Source: Dehalococcoidia bacterium (GTDB lineage Bacteria > Chloroflexota > Dehalococcoidia > Bin125). Taken from it: DNA of 64,000 nt. Under the pieces are notes generated by a model. That model saw only the letters and a program-made list of their open reading frames with translations, was not told the DNA's origin and did no database searches. A program made the translations under genes and the position numbers. How positions within the stretch are numbered: the stretch's first letter is position 1; each line of letters begins with the position of its first letter. The stretch spans positions 1,680,563-1,744,562 of the forward strand of contig OZ241849.1 of NCBI GenBank assembly GCA_965203165.1. Reading direction: 5' to 3'. Positions 5,876-18,399 of this stretch are shown here, one piece after another.

Positions 5876-5934
5876 GCCGAACACCACCGAACACAGCCGA
5901 ACACAGCCGAACACAGCCGAACACCACCGAACAG
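5876..5934. repeat. 11-bp tandem repeat (ccgaacacagc/ccgaacaccac), about 5 units
   Basis: Seen directly in the sequence. Confidence 0.8.
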
Positions 5935-6059: not shown

Positions 6060-6520
6060 ACTCCGTCACACCCGCGCCCACAGCTCCGTCATACCCGCGC
6101 TTGCCGCGGGTATCTCGCCGTGCCGAGCACCAAGCCCCGTTCCCGCCACCGCCACCGTCATACCCGCGCCCACAGCTCTGTCATACCCGCGCTTGCCGCG
6201 GGTACCCCGCCGCGCCGAGCACCAAGCCCCGTTCCCGCCACCGCCACCGTCATACCCGCGCCCAAAGCTCCGTCATACCCGCGCTTGCCGCGGGTATCTC
6301 GCCGCGCCGAGCACCAAGCCCCGTTCCCGCCACCGCCACCGTCATACCCGCGCCCAAAGCTCCGTCATACCCGCGCTTGCCGCGGGTATCTCGCCGCGCC
6401 GAGCACCAAGCCCCGTTCCCGCCACCGCCACCGTCATACCCGCGCCCAAAGCTCCGTCATACCCGCGCTTGCCGCGGGTACCCCGCCGTGCCGAGCACCA
6501 AGCCCCGTTCCCGTCACAGC
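6060..6520. repeat. 92-bp tandem repeat, about 5 units, each carrying a REP1 hairpin (tacccgcg-cttgc-cgcgggta). Flanked by 43-bp direct repeats (agcaccccaaacccacccccgccacttaccaagacctaccaaa) at about 5950-5995 and 6515-6560
   Basis: Period of 92 bp between successive gtcatacccgcgcttgccgcgggta occurrences (6089, 6181, 6273, 6365, 6457). Confidence 0.85.
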
Positions 6521-6625
6521 ACCCCCAACCCACCCCGGCCACTTACCAAGACCTACCAAACCCGACCACGCCCCACCACCCCCCAACCAGCTGAACACCC
6601 CAAGCCAGGCAAGCATGAACACGCC

Positions 6626-7831
6626 CTAAGAGTGTTGGGAGAAAGAGAGACGCAGGTCGGCGAGGAGCAGCCCGGGAATCTCCATGGCCGGAAAGTGGCC
6701 ACCCTCGGGGAACTCGGTCCAGTGCGCGACATTGAAGGCGCGCTCGCACCAGCTGCGCGGAGGCAGCGGGGTGCCGCGCACCAGCCGGGCGAAGCCGGTC
6801 GGCACGGCGACGCGCTCGCCCTCGCGCAGCCGCACCTGCCCGCCCAACTCGGCCTCAACCTCCGCCGCCGGCCGGCCGGCCTCGTGGTAAATGCGCATCG
6901 AGGAGTTGATCGTCTCCGTGAACCAGTAGATCGAGATGGTCGCGAGCAGCTCATCCATCGTGAAGCGGCGCAGGATGTCGCCGCCGCGCGGCGCCTCCTC
7001 GGGGCGCATGCAGTCGCTGAGCATCCACCACTTATCCACAATCCAGGCCGCGAGCCCGACGGGCGAATCGGCCAGCCCGTAGGAGAGCGTTTGAAAGCGG
7101 GTGCCGTGGATGGCGCGGTGAGCGGCGTCTTCGCGCACGTAGGGCGCCTGCTCGTCGCGGAAGAAGCGCTCCTCTTGCTCGGATTGCGCGCGCGCGGCCG
7201 CGCCGGGCGGGGCGAGGGCGGCGGCGGTGAGGTGCAGCGCGCGCAGCCGCTCCGGATGGCGCAGGCCCAGTTGGCCGCCGACCGCCGCGCCCCAGTCGCC
7301 GCCGTGATAGGCGAAGCGCTCGTAGCCGAGCTCGCGCATCAGCCGCGCCCAGAGGTCGGCGATGGCGGCCGGGCCGAGGCCGGCGCGGCGGGGGATGTCC
7401 GACCAGCCGTAGCCGGGCAGCGAGGGCGCGACGACGTGAAAGGCGGGCGCGGTCGGATCGTCGGGCTCGGCGAGCGCGTCGATGATCTTGTGGAATTCGT
7501 AGACGGAGGAGGGCCAGCCGTGCTGGATCAGCAGCGGAACAGCGTCGGCGCGCGGGCTGCGGCGGTGGATGAAGTGGATCCGAAGCGTCTCGCCGTTGGC
7601 GCAATCAAGCGGAGCGCGAAATTGCGGGAAGGCGTTGAGCCGCCGCTCAACGGCGCGCCAGTCGAAGCGCTCAACCCAGTGCTCGCAGAGCTCGCGCAGG
7701 AACGCAAGCTCGACGCCGTAGAGCCAGGCGGAGCCGGGCACTTCAGGCAGCCAGCGGGTGTTGCGCAGGCGCTCGCGCAGCGCCGCGATTTCGGCGTCGG
7801 GAACGGCGATGGTGTAGCGCTCGGGCTGCAT
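6626..7831 (-). CDS. Epoxide hydrolase (microsomal-EH-like N-terminal domain plus alpha/beta hydrolase)
   Basis: EHN domain motifs and the HGWP oxyanion motif. Paralogous to the adjacent gene. Confidence 0.85.
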   Translation of the reverse strand: MQPERYTIAVPDAEIAALRERLRNTRWLPEVPGSAWLYGVELAFLRELCEHWVERFDWRAVERRLNAFPQFRAPLDCANGETLRIHFIHRRSPRADAVPLLIQHGWPSSVYEFHKIIDALAEPDDPTAPAFHVVAPSLPGYGWSDIPRRAGLGPAAIADLWARLMRELGYERFAYHGGDWGAAVGGQLGLRHPERLRALHLTAAALAPPGAAARAQSEQEERFFRDEQAPYVREDAAHRAIHGTRFQTLSYGLADSPVGLAAWIVDKWWMLSDCMRPEEAPRGGDILRRFTMDELLATISIYWFTETINSSMRIYHEAGRPAAEVEAELGGQVRLREGERVAVPTGFARLVRGTPLPPRSWCERAFNVAHWTEFPEGGHFPAMEIPGLLLADLRLSFSQHS

Positions 7832-7840
7832 CCCCCGCGC

Positions 7841-9022
7841 CTAGCGCAGCGGGCGGAAGAAGTCGCGGATGTCCTGCACCAACAGATCAGGCTCTTCGAG
7901 AGCGGCGAAATGGCCGCCGCGGTCGTGCACCGACCACTGCTGGATGTTGTAGCCCGCTTCGCACCAGCTGCGCGGCGCCGTGATGATCTCGCCGGGGAAA
8001 ATCGAGAAGCCGGTCGGCGTTTCGAGCCGCCCGGGCAGAAAGTTCTCCGCCTGGTTCTGGCGCATCTCGTAGTAGTAGCGCGTGCTGCTGTTGATCGTGC
8101 CGCTGAACCAGTAGATCGAGATGTTGGTCAGAATCTCGTCCTTGCTGAAGCGCTTCTCGATCTCCCCGTCGCAGTCGCTCCAGGCTCGCCACTTCTCCGT
8201 GATCCAGCCCGCCAGCCCGGCCGGCGAATCCGTCAGGCCGTAGGCCAGCGTTTGCGGCCGCGTGCCCTGGATCGCCTGATAGCCCGTCTCCTGCGCCTGC
8301 CATTCAGCCATCTTGGCGGCAATCGCCTTCTCCTCGTCGCTCCACTCTTCCTGCGGGCGGTCCGTGGGCGGGCGGCCGATCGGCATGTTGATCTGCGCGC
8401 CGACGCAGTTCTCGGGATGCTGGTAGGCGACCTGCGCGGTGACGATCGCGCCCCAGTCGCCCCCCTGCGCGCCGTAGCGCTCGTAGCCGAGCTGCTTCAT
8501 CAGCGCGCCCCAGAGCAGCGCCGTCCGCTTCTGCCCGAAGCCGCCGGCCGCGGGAATTTCCGAGAAGCCGTAGCCGGGCAGCGAGGGCGCGACGACGCTG
8601 AAGGCGTCGGCCGGGTCGCCGCCGTGCGCGGCCGGATCGGTCAGCGGACCGAGGATCTTGCTGACCTCATAGAAGGTGCCCGGCCAGCCGTGCGTAAAGA
8701 CGAGCGGCAGCGGGTTGGGACCCACGCCCTCCTGATGCACGAAATGCACCGTGTAGTCGTCCACCCCGTCGGCGCTGACCGCTTCGGTGAACTGCGGCAT
8801 GCGGTTGAGGTAGGTCTCCTGCACGCGCCAGTCGAAATCGTTGCGCCAGTATTCGCAGAGCTCCTGCATGTAGGCCAGGTTGGAGCCGTACTGCCAGCCG
8901 CTGTCCGCCACTTCGGAAGGCCAGCGGGTCTGCGCCAGGCGGCGCTTGAGGTCGCGCAGGTCGGTGTCGGTGACTTCGATCGTGAAGGGCTGCGGCATTC
9001 GGTCGGTCCTCTCCCGGCTCAA
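7841..9022 (-). CDS. Epoxide hydrolase, tandem paralog
   Basis: The same architecture as 6626..7831 (THGWPGTF). Confidence 0.85.
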   Translation of the reverse strand: MSRERTDRMPQPFTIEVTDTDLRDLKRRLAQTRWPSEVADSGWQYGSNLAYMQELCEYWRNDFDWRVQETYLNRMPQFTEAVSADGVDDYTVHFVHQEGVGPNPLPLVFTHGWPGTFYEVSKILGPLTDPAAHGGDPADAFSVVAPSLPGYGFSEIPAAGGFGQKRTALLWGALMKQLGYERYGAQGGDWGAIVTAQVAYQHPENCVGAQINMPIGRPPTDRPQEEWSDEEKAIAAKMAEWQAQETGYQAIQGTRPQTLAYGLTDSPAGLAGWITEKWRAWSDCDGEIEKRFSKDEILTNISIYWFSGTINSSTRYYYEMRQNQAENFLPGRLETPTGFSIFPGEIITAPRSWCEAGYNIQQWSVHDRGGHFAALEEPDLLVQDIRDFFRPLR

Positions 9023-9076
9023 GCGTGTGGTGGCTGCGTTGCGCAGTATCGCACCCGCGCAGGCGCGGCGGGCAGA

Positions 9077-9319
9077 TCAGCCCTCCACGACATCGCCGGA
9101 GACCGGGTCGATCCGCACGCCCTTTTCGACGACCCAGGCAAGCCCGCGCTCGATCTCGTCGGCGTCGCCTTCGAGTTCGAGCACGACCCAGCCGAAATCC
9201 TGCTCGACAGCGGCCATGCGGATGTTGGTCACGACCTCGAACTCGCGGCCGAGCAGGTAGATGACCGGCTCGCGGACGGCGTCGCCCTCGAAGGTGAAGC
9301 GGACTCGGCGCGTGGCCAT
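9077..9319 (-). CDS. Stand-alone NIL-domain protein (MetN C-terminal-like small ferredoxin-fold domain)
   Basis: 80-aa product resembling the NIL domain. Located immediately downstream of a threonine-synthase-like gene. Confidence 0.5.
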   Translation of the reverse strand: MATRRVRFTFEGDAVREPVIYLLGREFEVVTNIRMAAVEQDFGWVVLELEGDADEIERGLAWVVEKGVRIDPVSGDVVEG

Positions 9320-9358
9320 GGCGGCTCTCCTGCCCGGCTTGGGGCGCGGCTGGCTTGC

Positions 9359-10594
9359 TCAGCTCTGCCCGGCGGCGGCGAATGCGTCCTCAAACGATTG
9401 CAGCGTGCCCTCGACCGGAATCGGCCGAGTCACGTGCGGCTCGACGGCGTCGGCCGTTTTGAGGCCGCCGCCGGTGATGAAGGCGACGGTCGATTCGTCG
9501 GGGTCGATGATCTCGCGCTGGAGCGCCTGGCGCAGCCCGGCGATCGTCACGCCGCCGGCGGTCTCCGCGAAGACGCCCTCGCTCTCCGCGAGCAGCTGGA
9601 TGCCCTCGACGACTTCGGCGTCGCTGACCGAGGCCGCCCCGCCGTCGGTCGCCGCCATCGTCTTGAGCGCGTAGTAGCCGTCCGCCGGGTTGCCGATCGC
9701 CAGGCTCTTGGCGATCGTGTCCGGCTTGACCGGGCGGATGTTGGTCGTGCCGTTCTGCCAGGCGGTCGCGATCGGCGAGCAGCCCGTCGCCTGCGCGCCG
9801 ACCATCCGCACCTCCGACTCGTCGATCAGCCCGTAGCTCTGCAGCTCCTCGAAGCCCTTGTGGATCTTGGTGAAGAGCGAGCCGGAGGCCATCGGCGCAA
9901 CGCACTGCCGCGGCGCCCGCCAGCCCAACTGCTCCGCCACCTCAAACGCGAGCGTGCGCGAGCCCTCCGAGTAATAGGGCCGCACATTGATGTTGACGAA
10001 CGCCCAGTGCCGGTTGTCGGCCAGCTCCGAGCAGAGCCGGTTGACATCGTCGTAGGAGCCGTTCACCGCGACGATCGTGGGGTGATAGATCGCCGAGCCG
10101 AGCACTTTGCCGGCTTCGAGGTCGTGCGGGATGAAGACGACCGCCCGCATCCCGGCCCGCGCGGCGTGCGCCGAAACCGCGTTGGCCAGGTTGCCGGTCG
10201 AGGCGCACGCCAGCGTCTCGAAGCCCAGCTGACGCGCCCGGCTGCTGGCCACCGCGACCACCCGATCCTTGAACGACCAGGAGGGATTGCAGGTGTCGTT
10301 CTTGATCCAGAGCTCGCGCATCCCAAGCCGGCGGGCCAGATTGTCGGCGCGCAGCAGCGGCGTGCAGCCCACGTTGAGGTCGACGATGTAGTCGGCGTCC
10401 ACGGGCAGCATGTCCTTGTAGCGCCAGATCGAGCGCGGGCCGGCCTCGATCCGTTCGCGCGTCACGCGCGCCTGAATCGCGCCCCGGTCGTATTGCACTT
10501 CGAGCGGGCCGAAGCAGAAATCGCAGACGTTGATCGGGTCGAGCGGAAACTCGCGGCTGCACTCACGGCAGGCGAGGTGTGTGGCGTTGGTCAT
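9359..10594 (-). CDS. Threonine synthase family PLP enzyme with an N-terminal Zn-ribbon (ThrC or ThrC-like sulfhydrylase)
   Basis: CxxC...CxxC ribbon. PLP lysine motif SFKDR. Fold-type II PLP enzyme of about 410 aa. Confidence 0.8.
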   Translation of the reverse strand: MTNATHLACRECSREFPLDPINVCDFCFGPLEVQYDRGAIQARVTRERIEAGPRSIWRYKDMLPVDADYIVDLNVGCTPLLRADNLARRLGMRELWIKNDTCNPSWSFKDRVVAVASSRARQLGFETLACASTGNLANAVSAHAARAGMRAVVFIPHDLEAGKVLGSAIYHPTIVAVNGSYDDVNRLCSELADNRHWAFVNINVRPYYSEGSRTLAFEVAEQLGWRAPRQCVAPMASGSLFTKIHKGFEELQSYGLIDESEVRMVGAQATGCSPIATAWQNGTTNIRPVKPDTIAKSLAIGNPADGYYALKTMAATDGGAASVSDAEVVEGIQLLAESEGVFAETAGGVTIAGLRQALQREIIDPDESTVAFITGGGLKTADAVEPHVTRPIPVEGTLQSFEDAFAAAGQS

Positions 10595-10741
10595 CGTTGG
10601 GGAAGCTTTCGGGTAGGAGGCGAGAGGGCGTGCGCGCGGCCTGTTGGGGCAACCCCCAATCAGGCCTCCGGCATCGCCATGCGGCCCTCAGCCGCGGCAT
10701 CCGTCCCCGTGCAAGCGCGCGTGCTCATCGGGCGCAGCCTA

Positions 10742-11284
10742 TCACGCGACGGCCCAGGTGGGGGTTTCGATTTGGTGGATGTTGTTGGTGTTGACGATGG
10801 TTAGCAGTTCGGCGATTTGGAGCTGGTCGGGGGGGATGGCGCGGGAGGGGGCTAAGTCGGCCAGGGGGCGGAGGACGAATGCGCGCTCGCGGAGGCGGGG
10901 GTGGGGGATGTTGAGGCGGGGGTGGGCGACGGTTTGGGAGCCGTAGAGCAGGATGTCGATGTCGATGGCGCGCGGCCCCCAGCGGCGCTCGCTGCGGACG
11001 CGGCCGAGGCGGGCTTCGATGGCCTGCGTTTGGTCGAGCAGGTCGAGCGGCGCGAGGTTGGTTCGGCCGCGCAGGGCGGCGTTGAGGAAGGGCGGCTGGT
11101 CTGCGTCGCCCCAGGGGGGGGTTTCGTAGAGGGCGGAGACGCGGACGTCGGCGAGGATGGCGCGCAGCGCGGCGGCGGCGGCGCGCAGCGCGGCGCGGCG
11201 GTCGCCGAGATTCGCGCCGAGCCCGAGGAAGACATCGACGGTGGGGGCATCGGGCGCGGCGGGCAGATTGGGCATGTCAGGCAC
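10742..11284 (-). CDS. folK: 2-amino-4-hydroxy-6-hydroxymethyldihydropteridine pyrophosphokinase (HPPK)
   Basis: Motifs VFLGLGANLGD and RWGPRAIDIDIL. Confidence 0.85.
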   Translation of the reverse strand: MPDMPNLPAAPDAPTVDVFLGLGANLGDRRAALRAAAAALRAILADVRVSALYETPPWGDADQPPFLNAALRGRTNLAPLDLLDQTQAIEARLGRVRSERRWGPRAIDIDILLYGSQTVAHPRLNIPHPRLRERAFVLRPLADLAPSRAIPPDQLQIAELLTIVNTNNIHQIETPTWAVA

Positions 11285-12101
11285 GGCGGACCACGGCGTC
11301 GGCGATTTTGGCGACGCGGATCATTTCGGGCACATCGTGGACGCGCAGGAGGTCCGCGCCGTTGGCGACGGCGATGGCGGCGGCGGCGGCGGAGCCCTCG
11401 AAGCGCTCGCGCGGGGACCAGCCGAACTGCCCGCCGGTCAGGCGTTTGCGCGAGAGGCCGGCCAGCAGCGGCCGTCCGGCGGCGCGCAGCTCGCGCAGGC
11501 GGTCGAGGATTTCGTAGTTCTGCCCGGGCGGCCAGCCGAAGCCGAAGCCGGGATCGAGGATCACGCGCTGCTCGGGAATGCCGGCGGCGCGGGCGCAATC
11601 GAGCGAGGCGGCGAAGCCGTTGAGCAGGGCGGCGACGGGATCGGCGGCGGCGGGGCGTCCGCGCCGGTTGTGCATCGCGATCACGGGCGCGCCGTAGCGC
11701 GCGGCGATCTCGGCGAGGCGGGGATCGCCGCGCAGGCCGTTGATGTCGTTGAGCGCGGCTGCGCCGGCGCAGAGCGCGGCTTCGGCGACTTCCGGCTTGG
11801 TCGTGTCGATGCTGATCGGCGCGGCGACTCGGTTGGCGCGGATCGCTTCGAGCACGGGCAGCACGCGGGCCAGCTCGACTTCGAGCGGGACGGGCTGGAA
11901 GCCGGGCCGAGTGGATTCGCCGCCGAGGTCGATCAGGTCGACGCCGTCGCGGCACATTTGCAGCGCGCGCTCAACCGCGGCGTCGACGTCGGACAGCCCG
12001 TCGCCGGCGAAGGAGTCGGGCGAGAGGTTGAGGATGCCGACGATGTAGGTGCGGGAGCCCCAGACGAACTCGCGGCCGGCGATGCTGAGCGGGGCGGGCA
12101 T
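11277..12101 (-). CDS. folP: Dihydropteroate synthase
   Basis: Motifs GILNLSPDSF and DLIDLGGESTRPG of the pterin-binding domain. Overlaps folK by 8 nt. Confidence 0.9.
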   Translation of the reverse strand: MPAPLSIAGREFVWGSRTYIVGILNLSPDSFAGDGLSDVDAAVERALQMCRDGVDLIDLGGESTRPGFQPVPLEVELARVLPVLEAIRANRVAAPISIDTTKPEVAEAALCAGAAALNDINGLRGDPRLAEIAARYGAPVIAMHNRRGRPAAADPVAALLNGFAASLDCARAAGIPEQRVILDPGFGFGWPPGQNYEILDRLRELRAAGRPLLAGLSRKRLTGGQFGWSPRERFEGSAAAAAIAVANGADLLRVHDVPEMIRVAKIADAVVRRA

Positions 12102-12104
12102 GGG

Positions 12105-12641
12105 TCAGAGCTCGCGCTCGCGGACGCGGGGGCGTCCGTCCTGCTGGATGGTTTCGAGCAGCAGGCGCCGCGGGGGCGCGTCTGTCTCGCCGATTTCGAG
12201 GGCGATTTCGCTGGGCACCACCGAGTCGGGCTCCGCGCCTTCGTCAATCCGCCAGGCGCGCACGCCGGGCTCGGCGTCCATCAGCGTGACGAGCACCCAG
12301 AACGGCCAGGGATTGGGCCCGCGGTGCAGGCGGGCGATGTTGAGGTCGGTCGGAGACGGCCGCGCTTCGCTGGCGACATGCGAGTGGTAGATCACGAGCA
12401 TGTCGCCGTCGCTGCGCTCAATCGCGTTGTAGAGGTGAAGCAGTTCCTGCGGGGGGATGTTAAAGCGCCAGGGGGAGGCTTCGGCGTTGGTGGTGCGGTA
12501 GAGGGTGAGCGCGCCGTCGGCGGCGCGCGCGATGATGCCGCAGCACTCGTTGGGCGCGTCCTGCTGCGCGTGCGCGATCATCTCGTCGACCAGCTGCTGC
12601 GGGAGCGTGAGCGTGGGTTGGTCAGTCATTAGGTCGGTCAT
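12105..12641 (-). CDS. JAMM/MPN+ (Mov34) metalloprotease, Mec+/CysO-hydrolase-like
   Basis: JAMM motif ECCGII...HSHVASEARPSPTDL. Start taken at MTDLMTDQ, with ATGA overlap to the upstream gene. The track's N-terminal extension was rejected as Arg/Pro-rich. Confidence 0.8.
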   Translation of the reverse strand: MTDLMTDQPTLTLPQQLVDEMIAHAQQDAPNECCGIIARAADGALTLYRTTNAEASPWRFNIPPQELLHLYNAIERSDGDMLVIYHSHVASEARPSPTDLNIARLHRGPNPWPFWVLVTLMDAEPGVRAWRIDEGAEPDSVVPSEIALEIGETDAPPRRLLLETIQQDGRPRVREREL

Positions 12642-13252
12642 CGGGCTGCCGCTGTCTGCGTCGGCTGGCTGTTGGACCAGAAGGTACGCGCTTCGTGGTG
12701 GGGGACCTCTTCGCCCCAGCTGTCCCAGCCGGGCGCGCGGCTGCGGGCGAAGAGCTCGATCTTGGACTGGTCGGGGAACATTCGCTCGATGCGGTCGCGG
12801 ACCTCGCGCGGTTTCTCGGAGTGCCGCCCGCGCGGCGCGCTGACCAGCTGGCGAACGTCGCGGCGGCCGCGCGGCTGGGGGATGCGCCCGCGTTTGAAGA
12901 CGAGGCAGAGCTCGCACTGCGAGAGCGTGTAGTGGCCGGGGTTGACGCGCTGCTTGTCCCAGATGAAAGCGACGGTGGCCCAGGCGAAGCCCCAGGCTTT
13001 GCCCAGCTCGATCGCCTGATCGAGGTGCGGCGAGGTGGCCCAGAGGAAGAGCACGCAGTCGTCGGCTGCGATCTCCTGCACGGGCAGTTGCGCCAGGTCC
13101 CGGCTGGCGACGGTGGAAAAGTGCCGCGCCGCGCCGCCGCTGTCGCCGCTGCCGGGCCCGGCGTGCTGCAGCTGGCCTTTGTAGTCCCAGGGCGGGTCGG
13201 CGTAGATCACGGCGTAGCGCCGCTGCGGGAGCGGGGGGAACTCGGTCAGCAT
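12638..13252 (-). CDS. MT-A70 family (DPPW) adenine methyltransferase
   Basis: Hallmark YADPPWDY motif and a 204-aa length typical of the bacterial MT-A70 clade. Confidence 0.75.
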   Translation of the reverse strand: MLTEFPPLPQRRYAVIYADPPWDYKGQLQHAGPGSGDSGGAARHFSTVASRDLAQLPVQEIAADDCVLFLWATSPHLDQAIELGKAWGFAWATVAFIWDKQRVNPGHYTLSQCELCLVFKRGRIPQPRGRRDVRQLVSAPRGRHSEKPREVRDRIERMFPDQSKIELFARSRAPGWDSWGEEVPHHEARTFWSNSQPTQTAAAR

Positions 13253-13644
13253 GTCGGCTCCGGGCGCCAGTCGCGCAGCGGGCCGTCGTCGTGGCAGGCG
13301 CCGGGCGTGAGCTGCATCTTGAGCAGCGTGCGGCTGAGCTGCGGCGCGATCAGGTGGTCGAGCCAGTGCTCCCGCTCGTCTTCGGGGACGATCTGCGCGA
13401 GGTCGGCGAAGCGAATGTGGATCTCGTGCTCGTCGGCGACGATGCCGAAGTCGAGCACCGGCTTGCCCGGCCGCAGCAGGCGGCCGATCGTGTCGCTGCG
13501 CAGGATGCGGTTGTCGGGGCGCTCGAGGTAGCGCTCAAGCACGCCGGCGCGGAAGCGCAGGGGCAGCGCGGCCGCGTCGCCGCTGGCGGCGGCGCGCGCG
13601 ACCGTGCGCCGCCAGACGGGGTCCGAGGGCGGGTCCGCGGGCAT
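13246..13644 (-). CDS. Hypothetical protein (132 aa) translationally coupled to the MT-A70 gene
   Basis: GC3-rich ORF with a 7-nt overlap to the downstream gene. No recognisable domain. Confidence 0.4.
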   Translation of the reverse strand: MPADPPSDPVWRRTVARAAASGDAAALPLRFRAGVLERYLERPDNRILRSDTIGRLLRPGKPVLDFGIVADEHEIHIRFADLAQIVPEDEREHWLDHLIAPQLSRTLLKMQLTPGACHDDGPLRDWRPEPTC

Positions 13645-13653
13645 CTCGCGCGC

Positions 13654-14499
13654 TCAGGCGGAGGGGTTGTCGATCGGCACGCCGACCACGCTGCCGTACT
13701 CGGTCCAGGAGCCGTCGTAGTTGGTCGAGTTCTCGATGCCCAGCAGGTAGCGCAGCGCGAACCAGCTGTGCGAGGAGCGCTCGCCGATGCGGCAGTAGGC
13801 GATCACCGGCTGGTCGCCGCTGATGCCCTTGCTCCCGTAAATCTCGCGCAGCTCGTCGGCCGGCTTGAAGGTGCCGTCCTCGGCGACGGCGCTGGCCCAG
13901 GGAATGTTGGACGCGCCGGGCACGTGGCCCTTGCGCTGCGCGGTTTCGGGCAGGCCGGGCGGGGCCATGATCACGCCGTTGAACTCGTCGGGCGAGCGCA
14001 CATCGACCAGCTGGCCGCCCACGCCGATGTGGGCGATCACGTCGGGCAGCTTGGCGCGGATCGACTCGTCGCGCTCGGCGACCGCGATCGAGCCCGCGGC
14101 CGGCGCGGGGGCGTCGGTGCTGGTCGGGCGGCTCTCGGCCAGCCACTTGACCCGCCCGCCGTCCATCAGCGCGGTGTTGGCCACGCCGTACATCTCGAGC
14201 ATCCAGAGCGCGTAGGCCGCGAACCAGTTGTTGTTGTCGCCGTAGAGCACGATCTGCGAGTCGTCGTTCGCGCCCGCGCCGCGCAGCAGCGTTTGCACGG
14301 TCTCGCGGCTGGCCACATCGCGCTGCACCTGATCCTGCAGCTGGCTGGTCCAGTCCCAGGCCACCGCGCCGGGCGGGTGGCCCTCGTCGTACGCGCCGGT
14401 GTCGACGTCGACTTCGATCAGGCAGACGGCGGGGTCGTCGAGGTGCTCGGCGACCCACTGCGTGCTGACCAGCTTTTCGGGGTGTGCGTATTCGGTCAT
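13654..14499 (-). CDS. sseA: Thiosulfate/3-mercaptopyruvate sulfurtransferase (tandem rhodanese domains)
   Basis: Two rhodanese domains and the active-site loop CRIGERSS. Confidence 0.85.
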   Translation of the reverse strand: MTEYAHPEKLVSTQWVAEHLDDPAVCLIEVDVDTGAYDEGHPPGAVAWDWTSQLQDQVQRDVASRETVQTLLRGAGANDDSQIVLYGDNNNWFAAYALWMLEMYGVANTALMDGGRVKWLAESRPTSTDAPAPAAGSIAVAERDESIRAKLPDVIAHIGVGGQLVDVRSPDEFNGVIMAPPGLPETAQRKGHVPGASNIPWASAVAEDGTFKPADELREIYGSKGISGDQPVIAYCRIGERSSHSWFALRYLLGIENSTNYDGSWTEYGSVVGVPIDNPSA

Positions 14500-14563: not shown

Positions 14564-15544
14564 TCACCACCAGATTTTGCCCTCGATCGTTTCGTCGCCG
14601 GCGATGTCCTCGTAGTCGCGCGCCCAGAGGCCGGTGGAGAGGTACTTCCAGCCGCCGTCGGCGAGCAGGACGACGATGTGGGCGGTGTCGGCGCGCTCGG
14701 CGATGCGCTGCGCGGCGCGGACCGCCGCGCCGCAGGAGATGCCGGCGAAGACGCCCTCCTCTTCGAGCAGCGATTTGGTCACGGCGAAGGAGGTGCGGCT
14801 GTCGATCACGATGCGTCCGTCGAGCACGGACTCGTCGAGCACCGGCGGGATGTAGCCCTCGTCGAGGCTGCGCAGCCCCTGCACGAGGTCGCCGGGGTGC
14901 GGCGCGGCGGCGACGACTTTGATCTCGGCGCGCTGTTCTTTGAGGTAGCGGCCCACGCCGGTCAGCGTGCCGCCGGTGCCCAGCCCGGCGACGAAGTGGG
15001 TGATCTCCGGGCAGTCGCGCAGGATTTCGGGGCCGGTCGTCTCGTAGTGCGCGTTGGGGTTGGCGGCGTTTTCGTATTGCATGGGCATGAAGACGCTGGG
15101 GTCTTCGGCGTAGAGCTGTTTGGCCATGCGCACCGCGCCGTTGCTGCCCTGCTCGCCGGGCGAGAGGATCACTTCCGCGCCGAAGAAGGTCAGCAGGTCG
15201 CGCCGCTCGACGCTCACGCTCTCGGGCATCACGCAGCGCACCGGATGGCCGCTGAGCCGGCCGATCATCGCGATCGCCAGCCCGGTGTTGCCGCTGGTCG
15301 GCTCAAGGATCGTTTGGCCGGGCTGCAGCGAGCCGTCCGCGTGGGCGGCATCGAGCATGGACCGGGCGATGCGGTCTTTGACCGAGCCGGTCGGGTTCTG
15401 GCCCTCGAGCTTGACCCAGATCGCGGCGTCGGGATTGGGCGAGAGGTTGTTGAGCCGGACCAGCGGCGTGTTGCCGATCGTCTCCAGCAGGGAGCCGAAG
15501 CGGGCGGGCGGCGCAGCCACGGCGGCAGGGGCGGCGGTGGTCAT
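14564..15544 (-). CDS. cysM: Cysteine synthase B-like (CysM, the CysO-thiocarboxylate-dependent type)
   Basis: PLP motif SVKDR, fold-type II. The start overlaps the CysO stop (ATGA). Confidence 0.85.
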   Translation of the reverse strand: MTTAAPAAVAAPPARFGSLLETIGNTPLVRLNNLSPNPDAAIWVKLEGQNPTGSVKDRIARSMLDAAHADGSLQPGQTILEPTSGNTGLAIAMIGRLSGHPVRCVMPESVSVERRDLLTFFGAEVILSPGEQGSNGAVRMAKQLYAEDPSVFMPMQYENAANPNAHYETTGPEILRDCPEITHFVAGLGTGGTLTGVGRYLKEQRAEIKVVAAAPHPGDLVQGLRSLDEGYIPPVLDESVLDGRIVIDSRTSFAVTKSLLEEEGVFAGISCGAAVRAAQRIAERADTAHIVVLLADGGWKYLSTGLWARDYEDIAGDETIEGKIWW

Positions 15545-15819
15545 CGGCGGCCGCCCGCCAGGGCCGGCAGAATCGCCAGCACGTCGCCGTCGCTCAGCGC
15601 GGTTTCGAGACCCTCCAGGAAGCGGATGTCTTCGTCGTTGAGGAAGATGTTGACGAAGCGGCGCAGTTCGCCCTGCTCGAGCAGTTGGTCGCCGATGCCG
15701 GGGTAGGCGCGTTCGAGCGAGGCGAGCAGGTCGCCGACGTTGGCCGATTCGAGTTGGACGGACTTCTGCCCGTCGGTGAACTTTTGCAGCATCGACGGGA
15801 CGCGGACTTCAACCGGCAT
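15541..15819 (-). CDS. cysO: MoaD/ThiS-family sulfur-carrier protein CysO with a C-terminal Gly-Gly-Arg-Arg tail
   Basis: 92-aa beta-grasp protein ending ...ILPALAGGRR. Sits directly upstream of cysM. Confidence 0.8.
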   Translation of the reverse strand: MPVEVRVPSMLQKFTDGQKSVQLESANVGDLLASLERAYPGIGDQLLEQGELRRFVNIFLNDEDIRFLEGLETALSDGDVLAILPALAGGRR

Positions 15820-15856: not shown

Positions 15857-16960
15857 CTAGCCGCCGGCCGCGGCTGCGGGGCCCTCGTGGAAGGGCGAGC
15901 CGCAGAATTCTTCGTAGTCGATCAGCTCGGTGACGCTGGGCGCGTCGCCGCAGAGCGGGCAGGCGGGGTCGCGGCGGATTTTGACGGTGCGGAAGTCCAT
16001 CGCCAGCGCGTCGTAGAGCAGCAGGCGGTTCTTGAGCGGCTCGCCCTGCTCCAGCAGCACCTTGATCGCCTCGGTGGCCTGGATCGCGCCGATCGTGCCC
16101 GGCAGCACCCCGAGCACCCCCGCCTCCGAGCAGGAGGGCACCATCCCCGGCGGCGGCGGGCTGGGGTAGAGGCAGCGGTAGCAGCCCTGCCCGGGGAAGA
16201 ACGTGGTGACCTGCCCCTCGAAGAGGAAGATGCTGCCGTCGACGAGGATCTTCTCGGCCAGGAACGCGGCGTCGTTGACCAGGTAGCGGGTGGCGAAGTT
16301 GTCCGCGCCGTTGATGATCACGTCGTACTGCGGGATGATCTCCATCGCGTTTTCGGAGGTCAGCGGCTGGGTGTGGGTCTGGACGACGATGTTGGGGTTG
16401 AGGTCGGCGATGCGGTCCTGCGCGGATTCGACTTTGGGGCGTCCGATGTCGCTGGTGCCGTGGATGATCTGGCGTTGGAGGTTGGAGCGGTCGACGACGT
16501 CGAAGTCGACGATGCCGAGGGTGCCGATGCCGGCGGCGGCGAGGTAGACGAGCACGGGCGAGCCGAGCCCGCCCGCGCCGACGGCGAGCACTTTGCCGTC
16601 GATCAGCTTGCGCTGCCCGAGGGGGCCGACCTGGTCCATGATCAGGTGGCGGGAGTAGCGCTCGACCATTTCGGGCGTCATGGCCGCGCCGCCGGCGAGC
16701 GCGGGAATCACGGCCACTTCATCGCCGTCGCTGACCAGGGTGTCGGTGCCCTGCAGTGCGCGAATCTCCTGGCTGTTGAGATAGACGTTGACGTGCTCGA
16801 GCAGCTCCTGCTCGCCGTCGAAGACCATTTCGCCGAAACCCGGGTAGCGCTGGTCGAGGTCGCGCAGCACGCCGTGGACATCGCTGCCGCCGGCCTCGAC
16901 GAAGGTGCGGTTGCCGGTGATCTTGCGGAAGGGGGTGGGAATGTAGACCTTGACGGGCAT
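15857..16960 (-). CDS. In-frame fusion of a MoaD/CysO-like ubiquitin-like domain (91 aa, ending ...IPALAGG) and a ThiF/MoeB-type E1 adenylyltransferase (274 aa) joined by Ala-Ala
   Basis: ATG at 16960 with GAAGGAA about 8 nt upstream. No stop codon between GG and the E1 Rossmann motif (LAVGAGGLGSP). E1 CxxC pairs are present and there is no rhodanese domain. The track's 887-aa ORF N-terminal extension was rejected. Confidence 0.75.
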   Translation of the reverse strand: MPVKVYIPTPFRKITGNRTFVEAGGSDVHGVLRDLDQRYPGFGEMVFDGEQELLEHVNVYLNSQEIRALQGTDTLVSDGDEVAVIPALAGGAAMTPEMVERYSRHLIMDQVGPLGQRKLIDGKVLAVGAGGLGSPVLVYLAAAGIGTLGIVDFDVVDRSNLQRQIIHGTSDIGRPKVESAQDRIADLNPNIVVQTHTQPLTSENAMEIIPQYDVIINGADNFATRYLVNDAAFLAEKILVDGSIFLFEGQVTTFFPGQGCYRCLYPSPPPPGMVPSCSEAGVLGVLPGTIGAIQATEAIKVLLEQGEPLKNRLLLYDALAMDFRTVKIRRDPACPLCGDAPSVTELIDYEEFCGSPFHEGPAAAAGG

Positions 16961-16983: not shown

Positions 16984-17919
16984 TCAGTCGTTGTCGAGCG
17001 GCATGCTGAGGTAGCGCTCGCCGGTGTCGCAGATCGTGGTGACGACGCGGCGGCCGGGGCCGAGCTGGCGGGCGATTTCGACGGCGGCGTGGACATTCGC
17101 GCCGGAGGAGATGCCGGCGAGCACGCCTTCCTCGCGGGTCAGCCGGCTGGTCATCGCGATCGCGTCCTCGTCGCTCACGCCGATCACCTCGTCGTAGATC
17201 TCGCGGTTCAGGACGCCGGGCACAAACGACGCGCCGATGCCCTGGATTTGGTGGACGGCGAAGCGTCCGCCCTGCAGGACGGGCGAGCGCAGCGGTTCGA
17301 CGGCGACGATTCGCAGGTCGGGCTTGCGCTCGCGGAGCCACTCGCCGACGCCCGTGATCGTACCGCCCGTGCCCACGCCGGTCACGAACGCGTCGAGTTC
17401 GCCGTCCAGCGCGGCCCAGATTTCGGGCGCGGTGCTGCGGCGGTGGATTTCCGGGTTGGAACGGTTGAGGAACTGCTGGGGCATGAAGTAGCCCGGTTCG
17501 GCCGCCAGCTCTTCGGCGGCGAAGACGGCCCCGGTCATGCCCTCGATCGCGGGCGTGAGCAGGACTTCCGCGCCGAAGCGCTCCAGCAGCCGGCGGCGTT
17601 CGCGGCTCATGTCCTCGGGCATCGTCAGGATCAGCCGGTAGCCCTTGACGGCGCAGACCAGCGCCAGGCCGACGCCGGTGTTGCCGGAGGTGGGCTCGAC
17701 GATCGCGTCGCCGGGCTGCAGCGCGCCGCTGCACTCGGCGTCCTCGATCATCGCGCGGGCGATGCGGTCTTTGACCGAGCCGCCGGGGTTGAGCGATTCG
17801 AGCTTGGCGACGAGCTCGGCGGCGGCGGGCGGCGCGACCCGGCTGAGCCGCAGCATCGGCGTCGCGCCGATCAGGTCGAGCACGGTTTCGGCGACTGGAG
17901 GCCGCTGGATGGTCGTCAC
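16984..17919 (-). CDS. cysK: Cysteine synthase A (O-acetylserine sulfhydrylase)
   Basis: PLP motif SVKDR and the TSGNTG loop, 311 aa. Confidence 0.9.
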   Translation of the reverse strand: MTTIQRPPVAETVLDLIGATPMLRLSRVAPPAAAELVAKLESLNPGGSVKDRIARAMIEDAECSGALQPGDAIVEPTSGNTGVGLALVCAVKGYRLILTMPEDMSRERRRLLERFGAEVLLTPAIEGMTGAVFAAEELAAEPGYFMPQQFLNRSNPEIHRRSTAPEIWAALDGELDAFVTGVGTGGTITGVGEWLRERKPDLRIVAVEPLRSPVLQGGRFAVHQIQGIGASFVPGVLNREIYDEVIGVSDEDAIAMTSRLTREEGVLAGISSGANVHAAVEIARQLGPGRRVVTTICDTGERYLSMPLDND

Positions 17920-17964: not shown

Positions 17965-18399
17965 TCAGATGTGGTAGCGGCCGCCGGCAGCGGCCTCCTG
18001 GCGGGCGAGGTCTTCGACGGTGCGCCCGCCGAGCACCTGCAGAATGGCCGCCTGCACATCCGCCCAGAGGCGGACCTGTGCGGCGGCCCCCGTACAGCGC
18101 TCGACGGGCGCTTCGTCGAGGCAGGCGGCGGGCACGATCGGGCCTTCGAGCGCCTGCACGACGGCATCGAGCCGGATCGCGTCGGCGGGCAGCGCCAGCT
18201 GGTGTCCGCCCTGCGCGCCGCGCGTCGAGCGGATGAAGCCGGCCGTGCGCAGGCGTCCCAGCACCTGCCCCACGAGCGAGGCGGGAATCGCCTGGCGCAG
18301 CGCGATCTCGCTGCTGGGGATCGGCCCCGCGCCGGCCTGCTGGGCCAAATCCACGAGCGCGCGAATGCCGTAATCGCTCTTGCTGGACAGCTTCATCAT
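17965..18399 (-). CDS. Rrf2-family transcriptional regulator (CymR/IscR-like)
   Basis: N-terminal wHTH (SSKSDYGIRALVDLA). Diverges from cysH. Confidence 0.85.
   Translation of the reverse strand: MMKLSSKSDYGIRALVDLAQQAGAGPIPSSEIALRQAIPASLVGQVLGRLRTAGFIRSTRGAQGGHQLALPADAIRLDAVVQALEGPIVPAACLDEAPVERCTGAAAQVRLWADVQAAILQVLGGRTVEDLARQEAAAGGRYHI

Follow-up and report, generated by a model that had tools for sequence, protein, structure and literature searches.

How a sulfur-carrier protein can function when the terminal glycine that should expose a free carboxylate lies inside a longer polypeptide is the question raised by one gene in a 64,000-nucleotide stretch from a Dehalococcoidia bacterium (GenBank assembly GCA_965203165.1, contig OZ241849.1, positions 1,680,563 to 1,744,562 of the forward strand), which is hereafter called the window. 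In this gene (16960..15857, minus strand), a CysO/MoaD-type ubiquitin-like (Ubl) carrier domain is encoded in frame with a MoeB/ThiF-type activating enzyme (E1), within a cluster of cysteine-synthesis genes that also encodes a JAMM peptidase. We consider it probable, with a likelihood of roughly 0.7, that the product is a polyprotein cut after Gly91 by the JAMM peptidase of the cluster, and that the released carrier is adenylated by the E1, thiocarboxylated and used by a cysteine synthase.

The gene is a single open reading frame (ORF) of 367 amino acids, and its translation passes from the carrier domain into the E1 with no stop between them. The junction reads in frame as ...DGDEVAVIPALAGG-AA-MTPEMVERYSRHL..., or equally ...VAVIPALAGG-AA-MTPEMVERYSRHL..., without interruption. 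The codons of Gly90 and Gly91 occupy 16693-16691 and 16690-16688, those of Ala92-Ala93 occupy 16687-16682 and that of Met94 occupies 16681-16679, while the first in-frame stop is the TAG at 15859-15857. The start ATG at 16960 lies 23 nt past the stop of the CysK-type gene (16984) and is preceded by a Shine-Dalgarno-like GAAGGAA motif. The initial annotation had described the carrier as fused in frame to its E1 with no stop after the Gly-Gly (GG), and the translation and the two Pfam domains found agree with that description. As encoded, the fused carrier has no free carboxylate on its last glycine, since 276 in-frame residues follow the GG, and a free carboxylate therefore needs proteolysis.

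The N-terminal domain had been called MoaD/CysO-like, and this assignment is borne out by a full-length match to PF02597 (ThiS), which covers amino acids 5-91 and profile positions 1-76 of 76, the last of them at the GG (E = 5.9e-14; 52.8 bits against a cut-off of 22.5), and by the best solved relative, which is M. tuberculosis CysO (3DWG_C; residues 2-91 aligned to 2-93; E = 1.1e-13; 54 bits). The remainder of the protein is covered by PF00899 (ThiF) over amino acids 102-335 (E = 2.3e-79; 266 bits). Its alignment with E. coli MoeB (1JW9; E = 1.2e-54) spans 242 residues, it also matches ThiF structures, and its predicted model gave Foldseek TM-scores of 0.91-0.94 to ThiF and MoeB in the PDB. 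We observed that the E1 residues RYSRH (R101, R104), the G-loop GAGGLGS (128-134), CYRC (260-263), Cys277 and CPLC (334-337) are invariant in the alignment, and that the stretch NGADNFATRY is conserved as well. Both CxxC pairs of the putative structural zinc site (C260/C263 and C334/C337) are among these invariant residues, and the crossover-loop cysteine of the E1, Cys277, is retained. No rhodanese domain was detected by Pfam in the fusion E1, and the NCBIfam MoeZ model is matched at positions 7-285 of 392 only, which leaves out its rhodanese part; the protein thus lacks the C-terminal rhodanese that marks an E1 of the MoeZR/MOCS3/Uba4 type. The E1 itself had also been noted to end in ...GPAAAAGG, which is true of the sequence here, and a functional C-terminal GG on the E1 was considered and rejected. 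A GG end occurs in just 6 of 120 homologues, and the C-termini of the set are of low complexity with much Ala, Pro and Gly, so that the terminal GG, being unconserved and set within such a stretch, is taken as incidental.

The distribution of the fusion was investigated at two depths. A search of 5.8 billion proteins listed 120 homologues with 63-92% identity, and ThiS and ThiF are both present in 119 of these 120 best homologues. In all 119 the junction consists of ...IPA[LI]AGG, a short variable stretch and then (M/L)TPEMVERYSRH, and G90 and G91 form invariant columns of the 120-sequence alignment. An exhaustive HMMER search with amino acids 1-140 as the query covered 1.84 billion sequences, each representing a 50%-identity cluster; of the 150 best hits, at least 76 were recognized as GG-linker-RYSRH fusions, with identities down to ~35% and a spacing from GG to RYSRH of 4 to 33 residues. 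The linker adds 2-9 residues in close relatives and as many as ~25 in distant ones, and no conserved sequence was seen in it. An invariant GG followed by a hypervariable linker is the pattern expected of a cleavage site and of a carboxylate that must be exposed, and not of a fixed interdomain joint. The initial annotation had allowed for a lost stop or a frameshift after the GG and had pointed to related genomes as the place to look for the same fusion; because 119 of 120 homologues and many cluster representatives have the same architecture, such an error is essentially excluded, and the fusion is, judged from these homologues, real. It is also, by the same comparisons, widespread in Chloroflexota and other microbes, where the existing Joint Genome Institute (JGI) annotation of relatives reads adenylyltransferase/converting-factor small subunit.

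The junction was further considered in an AlphaFold2 model built with the 120-sequence alignment (mean predicted local distance difference test score, pLDDT, 84; predicted template modelling score 0.72). The model displays two confident domains, of which amino acids 1-87 form a confident alpha/beta domain, and the pLDDT falls below 50 at amino acids 88-92 and stays at ~58 on to amino acid 110. On account of the values below 50, the junction is predicted to be flexible, which would be compatible with an accessible cleavage site. Foldseek matches in the PDB were confined to the E1 domain and are uninformative on the packing of the two domains.

In the scheme that we infer, in respect of the cleavage as well as of the synthase-carrier pairing and the sulfur donor, the CysO/MoaD-type carrier would be translated as a polyprotein, fused to the N-terminus of its own MoeB-type E1. 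The JAMM peptidase of the cluster would hydrolyse the Gly91-Ala92 bond, giving a carrier of 91 residues whose Gly-Gly carboxylate is free and an E1 of 276 residues, and the dimeric E1 would then adenylate the carrier. Persulfide sulfur, probably delivered via the tandem rhodanese of the cluster, would turn the carrier adenylate into a thiocarboxylate, from which a pyridoxal phosphate (PLP)-dependent cysteine synthase would form a carrier-cysteine adduct, and the same JAMM peptidase would hydrolyse this adduct to yield cysteine. The window would accordingly hold two carrier-synthase pairs, with one E1 and one JAMM peptidase common to both; from synteny, the fused carrier seems to pair with the CysK-type enzyme and the free CysO with CysM.

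The individual reactions of this scheme have been described elsewhere. In M. tuberculosis, MoeZR thiocarboxylates CysO, CysM adds O-phosphoserine to give the adduct, and Mec+ hydrolyses the CysO-cysteine adduct (PMC3227635). JAMM enzymes cut linear MoaD-MoaE and SAMP fusions at the C-terminal Gly (PMC8832034), and the activity of MoaX depends on cleavage at Gly82 (PMC4326299). Since the last step of the pathway already cuts a peptide bond after GG, a tail of 1-5 residues, or even a whole E1, could be tolerated at that position. The variability of tails and fusions among relatives, and the RR tail of the free CysO in the window, would follow from the same activity, because JAMM cleavage would remove the residues after GG; the ALAGG-RR end of this free CysO means that trimming after GG is needed there too.

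In the comparison of loci, one genome was taken per species, giving 80 loci in which the window operon proteins were mapped by phmmer with flanks of up to 10 kb; the nearest loci belong to Dehalococcoidia metagenome-assembled genomes with 89-91% identity, which places the window in Chloroflexota. The arrangement of the window (type A; L001-L012 and L024) runs through Rrf2, the CysK-type gene, the Ubl-E1 fusion, free CysO and CysM, and often continues with the rhodanese, a 132-amino-acid protein, JAMM, folP and folK. In type B (L013-L019), a CysK-type synthase, the Ubl-E1 fusion and JAMM occur together with no CysO-CysM pair beside the fusion, an arrangement which suggests that the fused carrier usually works with the CysK-type enzyme. 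A CysK-type gene is adjacent or near in every fused bacterial locus with enough flank. No other carrier was found in L017 or L018, where the upstream flank is ~1.5 kb, or within 10 kb on each side in L019, and in all three no cysteine-synthase gene except the CysK-type one was found next to the fusion and JAMM. The order in L019, from Moorellaceae, is sulfite reductase, TusA, Ubl-E1, CysK-type and JAMM, the last three being joined by a 2-nt gap and an overlap, and that in L018, from Thermaerobacter marianensis, is Ubl-E1, a DsrE-like gene, CysK-type and JAMM. L017-L019, where no carrier but the fused domain was found close to the synthase and JAMM genes, argue for a functional carrier that cleavage after GG sets free. 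In another type B locus, L014, a ThrC-associated carrier lies ~4 kb from the fusion. L015 and L016 were considered as cases of fusion, CysM and JAMM without a free CysO and were rejected: the PLP enzyme encoded there between the fusion and JAMM (11194-12204) reaches no more than 32-34 bits to CysM, has an SFKLRG motif and is apparently another enzyme of fold type II.

The split arrangement (type C) has a carrier gene directly upstream of the E1 gene, and the carrier ends in GG plus 0-5 residues (GG-AGGRS, GG-EERRR, GG-K, GG-QE, GG-QGR, GG-SR, GG-R or bare GG). The Caldilineales/Anaerolineae E1 proteins (L021, L037, L051-L056) carry an N-terminal rhodanese, with a separate upstream carrier that has a tail of 1-5 residues after GG; among the cluster representatives, P0162 and P0207 are apparent carrier-GG-rhodanese fusions that seemingly run on into E1. 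The free CysO orthologues of related loci likewise end in GG, GG-A, GG-AH, GG-MA, GG-S, GG-R, GG-C or GG-Q. In some free carriers a motif is repeated after the GG, as in L009 (4263-4637, PALAGG-SQPALAGGSQPALA) and P0206 (PALAGG-GPALAGGGPALANGG...), and this looks like a possible tandem duplication of the cleavage-site motif. Many Dehalococcoidia show a further arrangement (type D) with Rrf2, E1 and CysM, and neither a carrier nor a JAMM gene nearby, while two Thermoplasmata archaea harbor a carrier-long-linker-E1 fusion beside a JAMM gene. In a neighbour-joining tree of the E1 domain, which has no bootstrap, an unfused Dehalococcoidia clade falls inside the fused group and the archaeal fusions are distant; this placement suggests that the carrier-E1 linkage may have undergone repeated fusion, fission or loss. 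Of the 33 loci that have a fused or separate carrier, 21 also have a JAMM gene within 10 kb, whereas none of the 47 E1 loci lacking a carrier does (Fisher p = 3.5e-11, phylogenetic relatedness ignored).

Several points weigh against cleavage of the fusion. We found no experimental or proteomic evidence of cleavage in the literature for any Ubl-E1 fusion. The CysO/CysM pathway requires a JAMM gene with or without a fusion, so the presence of this gene, and its co-occurrence with carriers, is not specific evidence of fusion processing, and the co-occurrence statistic takes no account of phylogeny. No JAMM gene was detected within 10 kb on both sides in the fused loci L005, L010 and L011, nor in the ~5.5-7 kb flank of the fused locus L007. 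The free CysO of the window is closer to M. tuberculosis CysO than the fused copy is (82 versus 54 bits), and the fused carrier could be dispensable in this organism. The linker here has only two residues, and the scheme takes for granted that the peptidase can reach the site. These same features, namely the nearby free CysO, the two-residue linker and the fused loci lacking a JAMM gene within 10 kb, would suit a fused domain that stays uncleaved and assists or regulates the E1, by docking or as a pseudo-substrate, leaving the free CysO as the only real carrier; a different role has indeed been proposed by Iyer et al. 2006 for the fused domain of another N-terminal Ubl-ThiF protein that co-occurs with a solo ThiS (PMC1779556). 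We regard this as unlikely, as such a domain would need neither a strictly invariant GG nor a hypervariable linker, the ThiS profile is matched end to end, the split orthologous arrangements have the same domain as its own gene, and in L017-L019 the fusion stands with a cysteine synthase and JAMM and no other carrier was found in the available flank. A further and doubtful idea is that the uncleaved fusion is an autoinhibited, zymogen-like pro-enzyme switched on by JAMM, with the CysK-type partner as a second lineage of thiocarboxylate-dependent synthases. In MoeB-type dimers, as seen in the MoeB-MoaD structure, the N-terminal RYSRH motif reaches into the ATP site of the partner subunit, and the GG of the fusion is tethered ~10-13 residues from the RYSRH motif of its E1, so an uncleaved carrier could sit pre-docked on the other subunit and block it. 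If that were true, cleavage would free the carboxylate in place, with 1:1 stoichiometry and with the protease gating sulfur flux, and the CysK-type rather than CysM-type pairing would represent a second, uncharacterised lineage of thiocarboxylate-dependent cysteine synthases.

It is quite unlikely, in our assessment, that the released carrier or the free CysO serves mainly or also as a protein modifier in SAMP/TtuB-like conjugation, with JAMM as the deconjugating enzyme. This possibility draws on NCBIfam scores that come close to the threshold, 368 bits for the SAMP-activating E1 UbaA (cut-off 450) and 57.5 bits for SAMP1 (cut-off 60), on 'desampylase' as the sole NCBIfam match of the JAMM protein, and on the retained crossover-loop Cys277. 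All of these NCBIfam matches, however, lie under the curated cut-offs, and the cysteine and sulfur context is consistent, with Rrf2/CymR-like, CysK, CysM and rhodanese genes in the cluster and sulfite reductase, TusA and DsrE in relatives; cleavage at GG would in any case be needed for conjugation too, so the two are not in conflict. Scarcely credible is an assembly or sequencing artefact, or an E1 made separately from the internal Met94. In favour of either stands an ATG at the position where a stand-alone E1 would start, within GCC-ATG-ACG, which includes the ATGA usual in stop/start overlaps of split genes, and the relative L020 is split in exactly this way, with GG-AGGRS* overlapping the ATG. 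The in-frame fusion nevertheless recurs across many assemblies in the homologues and dozens of 50%-identity clusters mentioned above, and internal initiation would leave the carrier without a free GG anyway. Initiation of a separate E1 at Met94 was rejected. Among 119 homologues this position holds Leu in 69, Met in 47 and Phe in 3, and in the window the codon lacks a Shine-Dalgarno-like motif upstream, so separate initiation of the E1 is not conserved.

Among the closest known counterparts of the window cluster is the CysO-CysM-Mec+-MoeZR system of M. tuberculosis (PMC3227635; 3DWG, 3DKI). Both carriers of the window have the CysO of that system as their best solved match, and the window likewise has a CysM orthologue beside CysO, the two genes overlapping, and a JAMM protein whose metal-binding motif is intact. 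The window differs in that one carrier copy is fused to the E1, that the cluster includes a CysK-type synthase and an Rrf2 regulator, and that the free CysO has an RR tail after GG. M. tuberculosis MoeZR has a C-terminal rhodanese, whereas the window E1 has none and a separate tandem rhodanese is encoded instead. The window E1 also lies inside the operon, unlike M. tuberculosis moeZ, which is unlinked.

MoaX (PMC4326299) and D. radiodurans DR2607 (PMC8832034) also carry a MoaD-type domain at the N-terminus, linked through its GG to another protein of the same pathway. Both need cleavage behind the final Gly for activity, and DR2607 is cut by the JAMM peptidase DRJAMM (PMC4326299, PMC8832034). 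In the window, by contrast, the partner is the activating E1 and not the large subunit of molybdopterin synthase, the pathway is cysteine synthesis and not the molybdenum cofactor, and the cleavage is predicted. In the QbsE/QbsD system of thioquinolobactin synthesis and the HcyS/HcyD system of Wolinella methionine synthesis, carriers bear short C-terminal extensions that are trimmed by JAMM peptidases. Operons of these two types form classes 4a and 4e in the catalogue by Iyer, Burroughs and Aravind (2006) of operons with ThiS/MoaD, E1, JAB and cysteine synthase, which includes one in Chloroflexus (PMC1779556). As in those systems, the window encodes residues after the carrier GG and has a JAMM gene in the operon, and the sulfite reductase/TusA context of class 4e is shared by L019; the extension in QbsE/HcyS is 1-2 residues, whereas it is a 276-residue enzyme in the fused copy of the window and RR in the free copy.

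An N-terminal Ubl-ThiF fusion was described by Iyer et al. 2006 (PMC1779556), and the window gene resembles that family in having the Ubl N-terminal to a ThiF/MoeB adenylation domain, often with a solo carrier in the operon. That family, however, sits in thiamine operons, a class without JAB genes there (PMC1779556), whereas the window gene lies in a cysteine/sulfur-assimilation operon with JAMM and thus outside the thiamine-operon, JAB-free context; compared by description, the Ubl of that family is distinct from ThiS, while the window domain matches PF02597 in full and keeps the invariant GG. Makarova and Koonin (2010) listed the Ubl-E1-TBP architecture of Thaumarchaeota as shared with bacteria (PMC2948915). 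Ubl-E1 fusions, as well as the idea that JAB peptidases free fused ThiS/MoaD domains, are thus already published (PMC1779556, PMC2948915), and we found no experimental study of Ubl-E1, ThiS-ThiF or MoaD-MoeB fusions in the literature. The combination of a CysO-type carrier with a rhodanese-less MoeB-type E1 in cysteine operons is a well-supported and fairly ordinary variant of the known scheme. A specialist would find the fusion unsurprising, as the architecture and the idea of processing were predicted in 2006, and no long-standing question is opened by it. If the cleavage is true, this would be the first documented sulfur carrier made as a polyprotein with its own activating enzyme, the logic of polyubiquitin and MoaX would be extended to the E1 step, and the free drift of tails after GG in CysO-type carriers would be explained by the JAMM peptidase of the pathway removing them. 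For annotation, such genes should not be labelled as frameshifted or as merely 'bifunctional', and the fusion draws attention to a CysK-type synthase whose sulfur may come from a protein thiocarboxylate.

The gene cluster of the window (Table 1) extends from 18399 down to 10742 with all genes on the minus strand and with gaps of at most 64 nt or overlaps. A scan found no terminator-like sites on the cluster strand from 18474 to 10742, although this carries little weight, as shuffled sequence would be expected to give as many sites as the scan detected. The Rrf2 regulator keeps its position at the head of related loci. The stop of free CysO overlaps the start of CysM by 4 nt, and the CysM-type gene gives 322 bits to M. 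tuberculosis CysM (3DKI) against at most 249 bits to other synthases, a margin of ~70 bits. The tandem rhodanese after CysM is conserved in related loci and is likely the persulfide donor for the rhodanese-less E1. A JAMM peptidase had been placed in the same operon as the fusion, and this is supported by its PF14464 match, the shared strand and the tight cluster, with five genes between the two. Its start overlaps the stop of the preceding MT-A70-like gene (ATGA), and its motif E...HSHx7SxxD is intact, with NECCG...HSHVASEARPSPTD aligned to 2KKS and P. furiosus JAMM1 (5LDA).

Table 1. Coordinates of the fusion and of the surrounding cluster genes in the window
Feature	Position	Strand	Evidence
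CysO/MoaD-type beta-grasp ubiquitin-like sulfur-carrier domain, amino acids 1-91, end IPALAGG	16688..16960	-	Pfam, PDB match, GG conservation
Ala-Ala linker, from GG to the position of the native E1 N-terminus	16682..16687	-	Homologue alignment, AlphaFold2
MoeB/ThiF-type E1 adenylyltransferase, amino acids 94-367 and TAG stop	15857..16681	-	Pfam, PDB, Foldseek, alignment
Rrf2-family regulator, CymR-like, first cluster gene	17965..18399	-	Pfam Rrf2; NCBIfam CymR-like, 93.8 bits, below cut-off
CysK-type cysteine synthase, directly upstream of the fusion	16984..17919	-	TIGR01139 cysK, 421.8 bits against a cut-off of 350.95; PDB matches
Free CysO paralogue, 92 amino acids, end ALAGG-RR	15541..15819	-	Pfam ThiS; 3DWG_C, 82 bits
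CysM-type O-phosphoserine sulfhydrylase, thiocarboxylate-dependent cysteine synthase	14564..15544	-	M. tuberculosis CysM 3DKI/3DWG, E = 2.8e-95, 322 bits
Tandem-rhodanese sulfurtransferase	13654..14499	-	Pfam Rhodanese, two stretches; NCBIfam 3-mercaptopyruvate sulfurtransferase-like
132-amino-acid protein	13246..13644	-	No Pfam or NCBIfam match; conserved
MT-A70-like (adenine methyltransferase family) protein	12638..13252	-	Pfam
JAMM/MPN+ (Prok-JAB, Mec+-like) zinc peptidase	12105..12641	-	PF14464, E = 2.4e-21
folP and folK	after the JAMM gene, cluster end	-	

Two of the genes between the rhodanese and JAMM differ in their spread among relatives. The 132-amino-acid protein is kept there in at least seven relatives (L001-L003, L008, L012, L020 and L024), and the MT-A70-like gene is present inside the cysteine cluster only in the closest ones, L001-L003. 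Outside the cluster, 9359-10594 (minus strand) encodes a ThrC-like PLP enzyme whose N-terminus has a Cys-rich stretch, followed at 9077-9319 (minus strand) by an 80-amino-acid NIL-type domain with a weak match to the C-terminus of MetN. Relatives instead have a third CysO-type carrier behind the ThrC-like gene, with an exact GG end in L008, L012, L014 and L024 and with GG plus one residue in L020 and L032; such a third carrier was looked for in the window and rejected, the ORF at 9077-9319 being the NIL-type domain. Carrier-GG-NIL fusions were also noticed among the cluster representatives (P0212 and P0232), and the ThrC-carrier/NIL pattern hints at a further thiocarboxylate-dependent step. 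Elsewhere in the window, a 10/20-nt repeat occurs at 5876-5933 and a 92-nt tandem repeat at 6063-6517, with 4.9 copies and 96% matches, each unit of which holds an inverted repeat (ATACCCGCG...CGCGGGTAT); the 92-nt repeat accounts for the repeated peptide that opens a spurious plus-strand ORF of 1567 amino acids at 6101-10804.

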